The notes: generated from the sequence alone by a model not told the origin. A stretch of 64,000 nt of DNA from Escherichia coli (GCF_030013205.1 NZ_CP122648.1), one strand, 5' to 3'. Positions 30,244 to 47,885 are shown, counted from the stretch's first letter. Numbers and translations: made by a program.

Positions 30244-30579
30244 CAGAAGCGATCCTCTTATGAGATGTAGGGTGACATGGCGATGCTCATTTCGTAGCCA
30301 TAATCTAAAAATATCTACATTTCTGAAAAATGCGCACAAATGCGCCATATTGTTTTCTTATTGTGATCAAAAGCAACAAATTGGTAACATTTAACGTAGG
30401 GTATTAAGGCAAAGTGAGACAGGAAATGAATAACTAAAGCAACAGGTTAGGGGTGGATTACCATCAGAGAACAGATTATCTGGTCGATAAAAAACGGTAA
30501 ATGGCTTCACTGCAAAATGACCGTTAGTAAACTAAACATATTATCTGCCCCGTTTTAGCGGGGCAGATATAACATTAAA

Positions 30580-32273
30580 TTACAAATAGAGATAGTTCGG
30601 CGGTTCTCCAGTTTTCCCTAAAAGAAGAGCGCTACGCCCAGGAATATTGATATTTAGAGTTCCGCCTCTAAGCGTAAATGCTTTACCAGGGGGGATAATT
30701 TTTCGGGTATTATTAATAATAATGTTAACGCTATTACTCCCCATGTTTTTATATATTCCAGGTTGCAATTTGTTAGGCCAGGTACCTTCAACTTCTTCGT
30801 TTCCTTTATTTATTATAACTAGTCCATCATGAGGAGAGTGATTAATGTTCACAGAATCCCCACGACTAAAGGCCAGAACGTTTTTAGTTGCAAATACACC
30901 CTCAAATGCGCTCCATATTCCTGCTTTATCTATATATAATGCGTGGAATTCATTGTAGAGCTGCTGATAGGTAGAGCAACCTTTATTAAGCCACGCCTCA
31001 CCGCCGACACGAGTGGACCCATCATCATTTTTAATCTCAGTCGTTGATTTTAATACCTGACCATCCCAGTAAACTAAAGGCCTGCTGAACGGGAGAGCGG
31101 CCATATATGCCATTGCTAATTGTTCATCTTGCGGATGGTTAAATAAAAAGTCATTGAAAAGATTACCATTGTTAGGGAAATCGTGGTTGATGTTAATCAA
31201 TATCCGTCTTTCTGATGGGATGCTTGAGATTGTGGAGCCCGGTTTTGATGCAAGGGCTTGGAGATCTCCACCGAATGAAAAGGCTTTTATCGTCTTCATG
31301 AGCAATGAAAAATCAATGGCGCTTAAATCATCTCTTTCATAAAGCAGCGATGACATTTGTTGTTCATCTAACGGACAAGTTACCAGGTATTCCATGTAAT
31401 TCATAACAGCTTTTTTTTGATATTTTGGATTAAATAAATTTGTATTGTGCAACCGCTCATTATAATTTTTAAGCGGTGGGGTTATCGACCTCTCTATTTG
31501 TTCATGTTTTGAGTGTTTTGCTGCATCATAACGTAAACCTCGTACGCCATATTTTCGCATTTCACGAACGTATTGATTTTGCAACATAATAACCTGGTCA
31601 CTTTTGGGGGTTGTTTTAGGCATTCCATTTAAACGCTTTTCTTTTAATGCATGGAGGTTTTCCCATTCATCCTTAGAAATATTATCTTTACTTGCTTCGA
31701 AGTCTTTTGCAGTGAGATGTATATCTTCTGGATGGATTTGGTCACGTTCTTTTGTTACTGGATCTATAATAAAGGGAATCAAGACCTGACCTTGCCAATA
31801 GCCAGGGATACCACTTTCTATATCTTTACTGATCTTCGCTCGTATATCGGCAGAGGGATAATCCAGATCATTTTTACCACTACCCCCGATTCCCATAAAG
31901 TTAAATGTATAATCAGGGATGATATCGATACCAAATTTTTTGGCATCTTTAACCAATGCGATAAAATCCTGCAAATCTCCCATTGGATTATGGATAGTAC
32001 AAAGATCTTCGGGTTGATAAGCGTGAAACCAGTAACCTTTTTCTTCTTCGGGAGTTTCTGGTCCGTCGGCGCGGAAAGTGGTTACGGGAGGGATTTGTAT
32101 ATACCCATAATGACAACGTGCAAACTCAGATATATTTTTCCTGATTTGTTGATAGGTGGCATTAAAAGCATGAAGAATCGCTTCGCCAGGTTTTTTGGGG
32201 GTGATGATTTCACATTGTGATTTCTGAACAGCAGTAAGAGATTTACGCTCAAGTGTTTGCCGTAGATGTTCTG
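30580..32273 (-). pseudogene. GH13 (alpha-amylase family)-like gene, 5'-truncated at IS1 boundary (YgaQ-like)
   Basis: Minus-strand frame stays open from 30580 to the IS1 end at 32273 with no upstream start; contains GH13 region-II-like motif GVRGLRYDAAKH; ORF track 30580..31983 is the part after an internal Met. Confidence 0.6.
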
Positions 32274-32328
32274 GGTGATGCTGCCAACTTACTGATTTAG
32301 TGTATGATGGTGTTTTTGAGGTGCTCCA

Positions 32329-32604
32329 GTGGCTTCTGTTTCTATCAGCTGTCCCTCCTGTTCAGCTACTGACGGGGTGGTGCGTAACGGCAAAAGCACC
32401 GCCGGACATCAGCGCTATCTCTGCTCTCACTGCCGTAAAACATGGCAACTACAGTTCACTTACGCCGCCTCTCAGCCCGGTACGCACCAGAAAATCATTG
32501 ATATGGCCATGAATGGCGTCGGATGTCGCGCCAGTGCACGCATTATTGGCGTTGGCCTCAACACGATTTTCCGCCACTTAAAAAACTCAGGCCGCAGTCG
32601 GTAA
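32329..32604 (+). CDS. insA: IS1 InsA
   Basis: 91 aa zinc-finger/HTH protein [39 protein letters not shown]…. Confidence 0.95.
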
Positions 32605-33026
32605 CCTCGCGCATACAACCGGGCAGTGATGTGATTGTCTGCGCTGAAATGGACGAACAGTGGGGCTACGTCGGTGCTAAATCACGTCAGCGCTGGCTGT
32701 TTTACGCGTATGACAGGATGCGGAGGACGGTTGTGGCGCACGTCTTCGGTGAACGCACTCTGGCCACACTGGAGCGTCTTCTGAGCCTGCTGTCGGCCTT
32801 TGAGGTCGTGGTATGGATGACGGATGGCTGGCCGCTGTATGAATCACGCCTGAAGGGAAAGCTGCACGTTATCAGCAAGCGTTATACTCAGCGCATTGAG
32901 CGGCATAACCTGAATCTGAGACAACATCTGGCAAGGCTGGGACGGAAGTCACTGTCGTTCTCAAAATCGGTGGAGCTGCATGACAAGGTCATCGGGCATT
33001 ATCTGAACATAAAACACTATCAGTAA
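32523..33026 (+). CDS. insB: IS1 InsB (expressed as InsAB' transposase by -1 frameshift)
   Basis: 167 aa ORF in -1 frame overlapping insA 3' end. Confidence 0.9.
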
Positions 33027-45844: not shown

Positions 45845-46126
45845 GCACGAAACCTCATGGATGATTCAATACAATGTAGTGGATAAAATTGATCAAATTT
45901 CAACCGAATTCAACTGTTTTATCATTGATTAGAGCGAATTTGGTAGATCTTCGAGGTGTATGATAATCGAGAAGAGATGTGAATTATTTAGCTGATATGA
46001 CCGACAGCTTTCGTTATGTGGACTCAATGTCCCCATTTGTAAATGGCTATGCTTAGTCCACATAGGTTAATGGTGTGATTATTAATTCTTTAACTAAATC
46101 AAGATAGTTAATCCATCATGGGAGAG

Positions 46127-47356
46127 TTATGCGGCCATAACTTTGCATTTTTGAGACGAAACATAGTCACTCCACCATTGCATGAGAACCACCCGTTCAG
46201 TGAGATACTCTGCACGATTGTAGGCTGCAATTATTTCATCTTTCTTCGAGTGGGCAAGGGCGGCTTCTAAGACATCAGTCCTAAACTTGCCAGACTCCTC
46301 AGCAGCCGTTCTAGCAATGGATCGCATACCGTGAGCTACAAGCTCACCTCCGAAACCCATACGGATTATGGCCGCATTAGCTGTTTGTTCATGCATGTGA
46401 TTGAGTGGAGCTTTGATACTGGGGAACACCCACTCTCTATGCCCGCTGATGACTTTCATTAAATCCAAAACTCGCAAAGCTTCTTTGCTCAGTGGAACTT
46501 TGTGAGGCTTCTTCATTTTCATAAACTCCGCCGGGATGTTCCACATGCCAGTTTCAATATCAATATCTGACCATCTTGTGCGAACAGCTTCACCTGGGCG
46601 AACCCATGTGAGAAGTTGCCACTCAATCAGTAGCCTTGTTTCCAAACGGATAGAAGCATTGTTTAGAGCAACCAAGAAGCGAGGGAGTTCGGAAGGGGGT
46701 AATGCTGGCATATTCTGTTTTTTTGGCTTGCTGAACCGTTGCCCCAGGTTGTCTGCCGGGTTGAATTCTATGAGTTCTTCTGTTGCTGCATAGCGGAAAA
46801 TTTCATTCAGGCGGGATATGATGCGGCGAAGTGTTTCAAGGACACCTCGTTTTTCTATGGGTTCTAAATGCTGTTTAAGCATTTTAGGGCGAATCTCCTT
46901 AATTGGGGTATCACCCAATGTGGAAAAGATATTTCTCTCTAGGCTTCGCCAGATGTCGTTAGCATGATCTTGGGAGATGCCTGACGTTTTGACTTTCTCA
47001 TCAAGCCACTTCTTGGCTACTGCTTGAAATGTATGTTCCGTGGCATCTTTCAGTGCATTGGCTTTTTGGTTGTTATGAACTTGGGGGTCTATACCATTTG
47101 TAAGCAACGACAAGTATTCATCACGTAAAGCTCGTGCCTTCGCAAGTGTAAGGTGAGGATAGGTTCCTAAGCTCACCTTAGTTCGCTTTTTGGTCACAGG
47201 CACTGCATATCTGAAATACCAATTTTTCTTCCCTCCCTTCGCCAGGGGAGCGATTCGCAACAGCAAACCATCGCCGTCAAAAAGGTTAACCTCTTTTTCG
47301 GCAGGTTTGGTGCTTTTGATTTCAGTGTCAGTGAGCTTCTTAGCGATTTTGGCCAT
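46127..47356 (-). CDS. int: P4-family tyrosine integrase next to ssrA
   Basis: About 409 aa from MAKIAKKLTDTEIKSTKPAEKEVNLFDGDGLLLRIAP…; C-terminal catalytic region with R…HGMRSIARTA…Y; ORF track extends 27 codons upstream. Confidence 0.9.
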   Translation of the reverse strand: MAKIAKKLTDTEIKSTKPAEKEVNLFDGDGLLLRIAPLAKGGKKNWYFRYAVPVTKKRTKVSLGTYPHLTLAKARALRDEYLSLLTNGIDPQVHNNQKANALKDATEHTFQAVAKKWLDEKVKTSGISQDHANDIWRSLERNIFSTLGDTPIKEIRPKMLKQHLEPIEKRGVLETLRRIISRLNEIFRYAATEELIEFNPADNLGQRFSKPKKQNMPALPPSELPRFLVALNNASIRLETRLLIEWQLLTWVRPGEAVRTRWSDIDIETGMWNIPAEFMKMKKPHKVPLSKEALRVLDLMKVISGHREWVFPSIKAPLNHMHEQTANAAIIRMGFGGELVAHGMRSIARTAAEESGKFRTDVLEAALAHSKKDEIIAAYNRAEYLTERVVLMQWWSDYVSSQKCKVMAA

Positions 47357-47522
47357 GTTTGGGACCCTCGATTTTAGGACCCATCTTCGTGGGTCCCATT
47401 CAGGGTGCCATAACTCGTAGTTCTCAGCAATTCTCACTAGACTACAATAGACGTAAAAAAGCCCGCAGAGCTTGTGCTGTGCGGGCTTAGTAGACTTTAC
47501 TGAACTTCAGTACATCAATATT

Positions 47523-47885
47523 TGGTGGAGCTGGCGGGAGTTGAACCCGCGTCCGAAATTCCTACGTCCTCGGTACTACATGCTTAGTCAGTCTTTACAT
47601 TCGCTTGCCAGCTGCGGACGGACACGCCACTAACAAACTAGCCTGATTAAGTTTTAACGCTTCAACCCCAGGCAGGGCTTCCACGCGATCTCTTTTGGGT
47701 TTGACCTCTCTTGATCCCCGTCCTAAGAGCGGAGGCTAGGGAGAGAGGGCTCTAAGCAGGTTATTAAGCTGCTAAAGCGTAGTTTTCGTCGTTTGCGACT
47801 ATTTTTTGCGGCTTTTTACGAGGCCAACCGCCCCTCGGCATGCACCTTGGGTTTCGCAAATCCCGTCGAATCCAGAATCAGCCCC
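47523..47885 (-). ncRNA. ssrA: tmRNA (SsrA, 10Sa RNA)
   Basis: Minus-strand sequence matches remembered E. coli tmRNA from GGGGCTGATTCTGGATTCGACGGG to …GCTCCACCA (363 nt). Confidence 0.95.

Follow-up and report, generated by a model that had tools for sequence, protein, structure and literature searches.

A truncated island at the ssrA gene of Escherichia coli, very probably an integrative mobilizable element eroded by IS1

In the Escherichia coli chromosome NZ_CP122648.1, the interval between glaH (csiD) and the tmRNA gene ssrA is occupied by a decayed, ordinary defence island in an already catalogued E. coli hotspot. The region, contained in a window of 64,000 nucleotides (i.e., the whole stretch of DNA that was analysed), is very probably what remains of an integrative mobilizable element (IME) that was integrated at ssrA and eroded by IS1. 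An integrase gene and the attachment site within ssrA (attL) are present, while a relaxase gene, an oriT region and a second attachment site (attR) were not found in the window; thus, the island would be able neither to excise nor to be mobilized and is, for this strain, predicted to be fixed in the chromosome. The IME identity is drawn wholly from the relatives. Out of the hallmarks of an IME (relaxase/oriT; both att sites), only int and attL remain, and the window copy appears to be a truncated IME derivative rather than a functional IME. The features of the region, ordered from the distal side towards ssrA, are the following (coordinates refer to the window):

29266..30243, minus strand: glaH (csiD), distal core gene (as annotated in the identical record)
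30580..32273, minus strand: ygaQ' (GH13-like), without its 5' 560 bp, chromosomal flank common with K-12 (PF00128 + PF02806; K-12 comparison)
32274..33041, plus strand: IS1-left, 768 bp, present distal end of the island, no target duplication
33037..33648, minus strand: ankyrin-repeat gene fragment, 203 of 328 aa (Pfam Ank)
34113..34847, plus strand: IS1-right, 735 bp, variant with a 33-bp internal deletion, no target duplication
34878..38116, minus strand: hsdR, frame broken by a 1-nt deletion (PADLOC REase_I matches on both halves)
38175..39368, minus strand: hsdS, specificity subunit, intact (Pfam; PADLOC)
39365..40912, minus strand: hsdM, type I methyltransferase, intact (Pfam N6_Mtase + HsdM_N; PADLOC MTase_I, 625 bits)
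40913..42508, no strand: non-coding junction of conserved module and cargo, with IS3-family debris (sequence comparison)
41124-41393, plus strand: IS2-like OrfB remnant with two stop codons (50% aa identity to IS2 OrfB)
~42327-42458, within the junction 40913..42508: ISSen4-like trace
42509..43405, minus strand: ParB/RepB-like protein B, 298 aa, DGHLR motif (Pfam RepB + ParB_N; PDB Noc match)
43402..44298, minus strand: ParB/Noc/Spo0J-family protein A, 298 aa (Pfam ParB_N + RepB; PDB Spo0J/ParB/Noc matches)
44288..45844, minus strand: large serine recombinase (LSR), 518 aa, catalytic-Ser motif YLRMSTDHQ (Pfam Resolvase + Recombinase)
46127..47356, minus strand: P4/IntA-type tyrosine integrase, 409 aa, apparently intact (Arm-DNA-bind_3 + Phage_int_M + Phage_integrase)
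47459..47490, minus strand: terminator-like hairpin followed by a T-run, island-borne, downstream of ssrA (terminator scan and sequence reading)
47523..47536, no strand: attL core, last 14 nt of ssrA (block also present in the displaced ssrA fragments of relatives, attR/psaA)
47523..47885, minus strand: ssrA (tmRNA), full length, integration target, 3' end adjoining the island (ARAGORN; Rfam RF00023, 292.8 bits, model positions 1-374)

The description of this DNA in the first-pass annotation as AT-rich and horizontally acquired is borne out by its composition, with a GC content of 40.7% in region 30349-47523 versus 50-52% in the flanks (51.7% left, 50.1% right); the recombinase/ParB genes have 32-34%. 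Among 5,426 complete E. coli genomes, 237 (4.4%) contain 80% or more of the 20-kb region, as fits an insertion rather than a core arrangement. The int-LSR-ParB module is more widespread (573 of the 5,426), the ygaQ'/IS1 junction was encountered in approximately 11, and the exact IS1/ank junction in 6. Such patchy distribution and deviant composition are characteristic of Islander-type islands, as are the position of the integrase gene, 166 bp from a full-length ssrA, and the supply of sequence at the 3' end of ssrA by the island. Homology to K-12 ends just beyond ssrA and is picked up again within ygaQ, with the CP4-57 cargo absent, in agreement with the earlier view that the CP4-57 site is occupied by other DNA.

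The extent of the island had to be revised. It had been given as about 17 kb (30349-47523), including a truncated GH13 gene; the island itself stands, its outer part does not. This gene is ygaQ', and ygaQ adjoins glaH in 3,430 of the 5,426 genomes (63%), K-12 and O157 included; hence, it belongs to the flank, and the island measures approximately 15.2 kb rather than 17 kb. The sequence upstream of glaH is conserved to ~30455, or to ~30442 in comparison with B2 strains. The island proper, i.e., the ssrA-integrated element itself, comprises positions 32274-47522 (15.2 kb).

The attL core reads TGGTGGAGCTGGCG on the plus strand. In a three-way alignment of K-12, MRE162 and 24AR0180, flank homology stops at ...TGG(T)GGGCTGGCG, and all three carry the same displaced ssrA fragment with the same outer flank. 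The target, the last ~14 nt of ssrA, is also that of CP4-57 of K-12 (IntA; attR = psaA), whose displaced fragment and outer flank are those of the island's relatives. The integrases are related as well: a full-length comparison with K-12 IntA gives 48% aa identity, and the window protein scores 444.5 bits against NF007246 (cut-off 434). In both elements the ssrA terminator is island-supplied; a segment homologous to the hairpin downstream of ssrA is found at the left end of CP4-57, and the predicted terminator would still be provided by the present island. The two differ in that they have no cargo in common, that the relatives of the island possess a relaxase instead of P4-like genes, and that K-12 keeps psaA, whereas the window island is devoid of attR. 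No exact repeat of at least 11 nt of the ssrA 3' end was detected in the window, its 25-mer found no match there at up to three mismatches, and in an exhaustive edit-distance scan of positions 28000-47515 the 15-nt ssrA core found no match within two edits; the positive controls of that scan (psaA of K-12, attR of MRE162 and of 24AR0180) were all recovered. This agrees with the initial reading by eye that no second ssrA core exists at the distal side, where an Islander-type island would carry a displaced tDNA 3' fragment; none was found in the window. Comparison with the relatives suggests that attR was removed by deletion.

What lies beyond the present distal end is seen in these relatives. 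Strain 24AR0180 has the order int-LSR-ParB-ParB-hsdMSR-IS1-ank as in the window, at 97.6-98% nt identity, and continues past ank with hyp-ank-hyp-relaxase (PF03432)...HTH-DUF6387, followed by attR. MRE162 has the same ends with NACHT and RelA/SpoT genes as cargo, and in Klebsiella ssrA loci this module is accompanied by Mrr/ScoMcrA-like or UvrA-like + ThiF cargo. The PF03432 relaxase is present in 24AR0180, MRE162, AR_0119 and N1718, and relatives keeping attR contain ~13 kb of further island DNA past the ankyrin gene. Cargo and mobilization backbone also occur in an island adjacent to mutS (91-97% nt identity) with a different tyrosine recombinase; the relatives are mosaics.

IS1-left bridges the ankyrin fragment and the truncated ygaQ. 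The ankyrin gene is full length in ETEC6333 and 24AR0180, and the C-terminal part of the window copy is lost at IS1-left. ETEC6333, which has the ygaQ'/IS1 junction in common with the window, possesses 1,251 bp beside IS1-left that are absent from the window; these include 59 bp from the start of the second ankyrin gene, which implies that the backbone was once present. IS1-left appears to stand where this backbone, attR, ileY and the start of ygaQ (560 bp) used to lie. IS1-right occupies the place of 1,561 bp bearing kwaA-kwaB (Kiwa) in strain N1718, of which the last 36 bp of kwaB persist (34078-34112); the island DNA between the IS1 copies is confined to 33042-34112. The copies lie in direct orientation and are ~91-97% identical to each other. 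Their 9-bp flanks (gatgttctg / caatttttg and ccaggaagg / aaatagttt) differ at all four ends; the lack of target duplications had been recognized before, and none (8-9 bp) surrounds the pair either. Adjacent deletions mediated by IS1 are a classical behaviour of this element. As expected of such a deletion, a lone IS1 without target duplication joins sequences which lie at widely separated positions in relatives, and the deletions are nested, with the ETEC6333 state preceding that of the window. The longer attR-bearing relatives and the additional 1,251 bp in ETEC6333 thereby substantiate the suspicion that IS1 remodelled the distal boundary. Mechanistically, the deletions could stem from intramolecular transposition or from recombination of one IS1 copy with another.

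In the proposed history, a P4/IntA-type tyrosine integrase would have inserted the IME into the last ~14 nt of ssrA, the CP4-57 site of K-12. Judged by the intact relatives, its order would have been ssrA/attL, int, LSR, two ParB-like genes, an IS3-family element and a variable slot for defence genes, then an ankyrin/small ORF/ankyrin/small ORF/MobA-VirD2 relaxase/HTH/DUF6387 backbone and attR, the displaced ssrA fragment. The cargo slot of this lineage probably held a type I R-M system (hsdMSR) beside a Kiwa system. One IS1 may later have taken the place of kwaAB, and a second would have removed the mobilization backbone, attR, adjacent chromosomal genes (among them ileY) and the initial 560 bp of ygaQ. 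An extra IS1-adjacent deletion of 1,251 bp, which would have cost the island a small ORF together with the ankyrin gene's 3' end, was seen only in six pig ETEC genomes. Of this account, the anatomy, the distribution, the end-points of the deletions and the lack of attR are observed, whereas the sequence of events, mobility in the past and any present gene activity are deduced. The ancestral chromosomal flank of the lineage may or may not have included ypjA...ileY.

Other readings have to be weighed against an eroded IME. The ancestor could have been a minimal int-LSR-ParB-cargo element that never had a mobilization backbone, with the relaxase region gained later by the relatives. Module exchange is indeed evident from the backbone at mutS with its other integrase, and minimal versions exist in BL21 and NT1F34; however, every minimal version stops at an IS element and none at attR, and in ETEC6333 both the small ORF and the 59-bp start of the second ankyrin gene are retained next to IS1, i.e., the backbone was cut by an IS, which makes a minimal ancestor improbable. 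We consider it quite improbable that the region goes back to a cryptic prophage or a P4-like satellite, akin to CP4-57, that lost its phage genes. This origin would account for the P4/IntA-type integrase (48% aa identity to IntA; NF007246) and the use of the CP4-57 att site, and it would accord with prophages and P4 satellites being reported at the same hotspot (#9; PMC10121019) and with PHROGs containing a near-identical ParB-B (phrog_31451) and an LSR 'integrase' family. Yet beyond the P4-type integrase, the core genes of P4-like elements (alpA, primase/DUF3987, psu/delta/sid, cos) were not found among the annotated genes and ORFs of the window and of the complete relatives; alpA, primase/DUF3987, capsid, psu, delta and sid are absent from the window and from the fuller relatives, which bear a MobA/VirD2 relaxase instead, and nucleotide similarity to CP4-57 is restricted to the att-proximal segment.

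We give very little credence to a composite transposon, i.e., to IS1-ank-IS1 having carried in the ankyrin gene so that its boundaries stem from transposition rather than deletion. Two direct-orientation IS1 copies around a single passenger gene have the appearance of one, but the 8-9 bp duplication is missing at each copy and around the unit, the copies are merely ~91-97% identical, and in 24AR0180 and N1718, where the distal side has no IS1, neighbouring island genes follow directly on the ankyrin gene and its flanks. Junction searches found no target-duplicated copy of IS1-ank-IS1 at an unrelated locus or on a plasmid. That the region represents the ordinary core arrangement of E. coli without any insertion is scarcely conceivable: the ygaQ and glaH side is widely conserved, but most of the region occurs in the 4.4% of complete genomes given above and the exact arrangement in 6, and its GC content lies 10 points under that of the flanks.

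Returning to the eroded IME, its cargo comprises hsdM, hsdS and hsdR, all with the characteristic domains of a type I R-M system (Pfam, PADLOC); in the defence-system search, PADLOC returned this locus (MTase_I, REase_I). The gene order hsdM-hsdS-hsdR and the domains of the three subunits are like those of the solved reference EcoR124I (type IC), whereas HsdR similarity is distant (E = 3e-29) and the window hsdR is frameshifted. The affected homopolymer (37301-37306) is T6 in the window versus T7 in ETEC6333 and ETEC4067 (A7-to-A6 in gene sense), and the frame is intact in ETEC4067, a near-identical sister strain; the window lacks the intact hsdR frame needed for restriction proficiency. Being in a homopolymer, the frameshift could be an assembly error. 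HsdM and HsdS are predicted to be still encoded, as is HsdR where the homopolymer has kept its A7 length; as read from sequence, the restriction proficiency of the strain would depend on one A6/A7 tract. Within hsdS, positions 38293-38834 are unlike the alleles of relatives. The host of the island is a pig ETEC strain. Neither the hsdR frameshift nor the truncated-IME nature features in the first-pass annotation, whose gene list otherwise holds for the integrase, the recombinase/ParB genes, R-M and IS1-ank-IS1, while its IS2 remnant is IS2-like only; at the corresponding position in Klebsiella, an intact IS3-family element is found.

The interval corresponds to hotspot #9 of Hochhauser et al. 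2023 (PMC10121019), defined from a pseudogenised alpha-amylase gene to smpB, with identical flanking genes; reported contents are prophages, P4 satellites, IMEs and transposons (text, S1 Table). For E. coli hotspots, IMEs as element type and type I R-M and Kiwa as cargo are reported there, as here. The window copy differs from such IMEs by its truncation, and a relaxase-based classifier would call no mobile element. Independent IS-mediated erosion of the same island is found in BL21 (IS1A), NT1F34 (IS3) and ST410 (IS2/IS3). Taken together with the window (IS1), these cases suggest that ssrA islands are eroded from the distal side by insertion sequences, repeatedly and independently, and are thereby locked in place, and that remnants of this kind escape relaxase-based classification. 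Within one backbone, defence cargo—Kiwa, type I R-M, NACHT, SIR2, Mrr—appears to be lost or exchanged.

Discovery potential lies only in the conserved recombinase-ParB-ParB cassette (42509-45844), for which no described function or library name was found. The LSR matches large serine recombinases in PDB and the phrog_95 integrase, and the start and stop of the ParB-like A gene overlap the adjacent genes. In domain content, the trio resembles plasmid ParB/RepB partition proteins and LSRs of the phiC31/TP901-1/CcrB type. It differs from plasmid partition systems in that no ParA gene is present in or near the cassette and two divergent ParB-like paralogues are translationally fused to an LSR gene; ParABS is defined by a ParA ATPase, ParB and parS, and no repeated palindrome (putative parS) was detected. 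It is possible, though doubtful, that the trio forms a three-gene system in its own right, not described so far, instead of serving routine housekeeping of the island. Such a system could act through recombination, as a module for the maintenance, retention or exclusion of elements both integrated and extrachromosomal; the default guess is maintenance or resolution of the excised element. Collinear trios with overlapping start and stop codons occur on Agrobacterium fabrum pAtC58, a Burkholderia plasmid—the cassette order being conserved on both—and a faecal virome contig; every member has an orthologue in these cassettes (33-45% aa identity; 37% for ParB-like A and 33% for ParB-like B against pAtC58), and the neighbouring genes are unrelated. 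The trio is the part retained in all eroded E. coli copies examined, and it is 96-100% identical in at least seven enterobacterial genera.

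Over 20 kb, the region matches the chromosome of the pig ETEC strain ETEC4079 at 100% identity, and five sister strains carry near-identical versions; the PGAP annotation of the ETEC4079 record agrees with the ORF calls and the Pfam, NCBIfam and PADLOC hits obtained here. From the distal side towards ssrA, the locus is composed of the following features:

29266-30243, glaH/csiD, the distal-side gene
30580-32273, GH13-like pseudogene, 5'-truncated (K-12 ygaQ)
32274-33041, IS1-left
33037-33648, ankyrin-repeat gene fragment
34113-34847, IS1-right
34878-38116, hsdR
38175-39368, hsdS
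39365-40912, hsdM
40913-42508, non-coding DNA (1.6 kb) with IS3-family debris
42509-43405, ParB/RepB-like gene (ParB-B)
43402-44298, ParB/RepB-like gene (ParB-A)
44288-45844, large serine recombinase (LSR) gene
46127-47356, P4/IntA-type integrase gene
47523-47885, minus strand, ssrA

The GC content is 40.7% in 30349-47523 versus 51.7% and 50.1% in the flanks, with the LSR and ParB genes at 32-34%. A terminator-like hairpin 3' of ssrA is situated within island DNA, and the tmRNA gene was the sole ARAGORN detection in the whole window. The sRNA genes MicA and STnc490, found at the Rfam gathering score at 1427-1498 and 2152-2275, belong to ordinary core unrelated to the island.

This DNA is an insertion, as the first-pass annotation had held. 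Among 5,426 complete E. coli genomes, only 237 carry 80% or more of the 20-kb region in one place, the int-LSR-ParB-ParB module occurs in 573 genomes (BL21 and APEC O78 among them), and homology to K-12 stops just beyond ssrA and restarts within ygaQ; because of these low counts and the interrupted homology, a common core arrangement is excluded. By comparison with K-12, none of CP4-57, ypjA, pinH, ypjB, ypjC and ileY is present at the window locus; ileY, a tRNA-Ile(CAU) gene that in K-12 and NT1F34 has the ssrA islands on one side and ygaQ on the other, is missing throughout 28000-47885. Of the AT-rich island of about 17 kb originally proposed at the ssrA 3' end, the composition, genes and site stand, but not the extent, since the truncated GH13-like gene is K-12 ygaQ and belongs to the flank. 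The segment 30244-32273 adjoins glaH in 3,430 of the 5,426 genomes at ~96% identity, including K-12 and O157:H7; being AT-rich and missing from B2 strains, it is probably old foreign DNA, yet a chromosomal flank outside the ssrA element. With ygaQ assigned to the flank, the ssrA-integrated DNA therefore comprises 32274-47522 (15,249 bp). The flanking genes are the same as those of defence hotspot #9 of Hochhauser et al. (PMC10121019), namely a "pseudogenised alpha amylase" and smpB; this hotspot was detected in 649 genomes, 62% of them occupied (PMC10121019 S1 Table), and its described contents are prophages, P4 satellites, integrative mobilizable elements (IMEs) and transposons (PMC10121019).

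Inspection by eye had revealed no second copy of the ssrA 3' core, and systematic scans led to the same result: the ssrA 3' region has no exact repeat of at least 11 nt elsewhere in the window, and its 3' 25-mer has no match in the window within 3 mismatches. Given that attR of K-12 (psaA), the displaced ssrA 3' fragment, is a degenerate copy with indels, an exhaustive edit-distance (Sellers) scan was chosen, which recovered the displaced fragment at 1 edit in both K-12 and 24AR0180 and at 2 edits in MRE162, and gave no match at ≤2 edits in 28000-47515. The few 3-edit matches in that interval correspond to chance frequency (4-7 such matches per locus); an att-like site at 42417-42431, kept in all island versions, was rejected as one of this chance-level class. 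In alignment A2, homology among the outer flanks of K-12, MRE162 and 24AR0180 extends as far as ...TGG(T)GGGCTGGCG and is lost directly inside; hence, the att core is the last ~14 nt of ssrA, common with CP4-57, with which the 48% identity of the integrase to IntA is in keeping. The K-12 locus contains a second psaA-like ssrA 3' fragment, ACTGCCAGCCCACCAA, at its position 30468-30483 between pinH and ypjB, 2 edits from the core, which may be what is left of a second ssrA island, in tandem, made up of ypjA-pinH.

What the island once looked like can be read from its relatives. Strain 24AR0180 carries the same succession of int, LSR, ParB, ParB, IS remnant, hsdMSR, IS1 and ank at 97.6-98% nucleotide identity, followed by a 146-aa ORF, a second ankyrin gene, a 134-aa ORF, a MobA/VirD2-type relaxase (PF03432), several small ORFs, HTH proteins, DUF6387, IS debris and ankyrin plus SIR2 genes, and ends in a displaced ssrA fragment ~700 bp from glaH. 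MRE162 shares both ends and the backbone at 85% nucleotide identity, with NACHT plus RelA/SpoT and DUF4928 genes in the cargo slot; ypjA comes after its attR, just as it does in K-12. The smpB-ssrA-int-LSR-ParB-ParB order is also present in Klebsiella, where it leads into an intact IS3-family element and then Mrr/ScoMcrA-like or UvrA-like plus ThiF cargo; LSR identity is 96-100% across Cronobacter, Klebsiella, Citrobacter, Enterobacter and Salmonella. This shared architecture defines a family of ssrA-targeting IMEs with a variable defence-gene slot. Strain N1718 has the same hsdMSR and ankyrin/relaxase backbone at 91-97% nucleotide identity together with an intact Kiwa system (9966-26654 of its locus), in an island beside mutS (hotspot #8 of Hochhauser et al.) that has a different tyrosine recombinase; thus, cargo and backbone modules are exchanged among islands whose integrases differ.

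The left inverted repeat is perfect in each of the two IS1 copies, which point the same way and, as noted at the outset, lack target duplications. That IS1-ank-IS1 might constitute a composite transposon was rejected upon checking the IS1 flanks and comparing 24AR0180. Window positions 33042-34113 and 34848-38292 are collinear with 17251-18322 and 19884-23333 of the N1718 locus, and the 1,561 bp between those N1718 blocks encode kwaB and kwaA; since the window retains the last 36 bp of kwaB, the difference is a deletion and not an insertion in N1718, IS1-right having taken the place of the Kiwa system. IS1-right is common to all hsdMSR-bearing ssrA islands examined. At 735 bp, it is a variant that has lost 33 bp internally compared with IS1-left, to which it is only ~91-97% identical; PGAP annotates it as encoding a frameshift-type transposase despite the deletion.

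At IS1-left, island DNA is linked to ygaQ, which is broken off at a point 560 bp into the K-12 gene. In strain ETEC6333, the same ygaQ'/IS1 junction leads into backbone genes, namely the 146-aa ORF and the second ankyrin gene, of which the first 59 bp are left; this bears out the suspicion that IS1 remodelled the distal boundary; the mobilization backbone was, therefore, once present and then cut. Another 1,251 bp, abutting the right end of IS1-left, are missing from the window, with loss of the 146-aa ORF and the ankyrin 3' end. About 11 genomes, all pig-associated, have the ygaQ'/IS1 junction, whereas the IS1/ank junction is confined to the six sister ETEC genomes. Independent IS truncations of the same island occurred in BL21 (IS1A, then glaH directly), NT1F34 (IS3, then ileY-ygaQ) and ST410 (IS2/IS3). 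An extra IS3-family element, present in ETEC6333 only (4264-5584 of its locus), interrupts ygaQ' at a distance of 12-26 bp from the IS1 junction, indicating that IS activity went on there. The supposed IS2 remnant is an IS remnant, containing two stop codons, but not IS2 itself: it shares 50% protein identity with the C-terminal part of IS2 OrfB, and at the nucleotide level it matches neither the ST410 IS2 copy nor IS2 across E. coli.

The cargo includes the type I R-M locus recognised initially; PADLOC, run on the island as a defence-system check, returned its subunits and, beyond these, weak ankyrin-repeat matches only. Within hsdR, a 1-nt homopolymer deletion (T6 at 37301-37306 versus T7 in ETEC6333; A7-to-A6 on the coding strand) splits the gene, whereas sister strain ETEC4067, with an otherwise identical locus, has an intact 1,079-aa hsdR. 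The frameshift is either real, as a very recent mutation or phase variant, or an assembly error in the homopolymer. PDB comparison revealed only a distant relation of HsdR to that of EcoR124I, too distant for a type I family assignment, which was dropped. One hsdS target-recognition region (38293-38834) differs from the 24AR0180 and N1718 alleles, with hsdM, hsdR and the remaining hsdS at 96-98% identity to both; this is ordinary type I specificity swapping.

Taken together, the island is real, its initial interpretation was essentially right, and the element belongs to a known class, of which it is an ordinary, decayed example in a catalogued hotspot. Sequence comparison of the relatives shows integration at the ssrA 3' core by the IntA-type integrase, with ssrA regenerated and the old 3' end displaced, and the window copy presumably arose likewise. 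Judged by domain content, the relaxase backbone would permit mobilization by a conjugative helper; the comparisons also show that defence systems are exchanged in the cargo slot, which has the IS3-family element on one side and the backbone on the other. Having lost attR and relaxase, the window copy would be a remnant fixed in the chromosome.

The one non-routine item of the island is the tight cassette of LSR and two ParB-like genes (42509-45844), with overlapping start and stop codons. Collinear cassettes lie on A. fabrum C58 pAt (L016, 6001-9340; full-length identities of 44.6% for LSR, 37% for ParB-A and 33% for ParB-B), a Burkholderia plasmid (L017, 5956-9295) and a 7.4-kb faecal virome contig (L018, 884-4201), each time with unrelated neighbours; a Lactiplantibacillus "plasmid" match, which looks like a high-GC contaminant contig, was set aside. 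Both ParB-like proteins are true ParB/Noc/Spo0J-family members, and no ParA partner accompanies the cassette. Pfam, NCBIfam, PADLOC and PHROGs give no function name for it, PADLOC finds no defence-system match in the recombinase and ParB genes except for a generic ParB-domain match, and the literature yielded nothing specific on the cassette or this particular island. A search for parS-like repeats or a conserved operator upstream of the LSR gene gave one imperfect inverted repeat of 24 nt in the int-LSR intergenic region (46015-46064; 75% complementary, 2-nt spacer), which is not conserved in the pAtC58, Burkholderia and virome cassettes. The cassette is the portion kept in every eroded E. 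coli copy examined.
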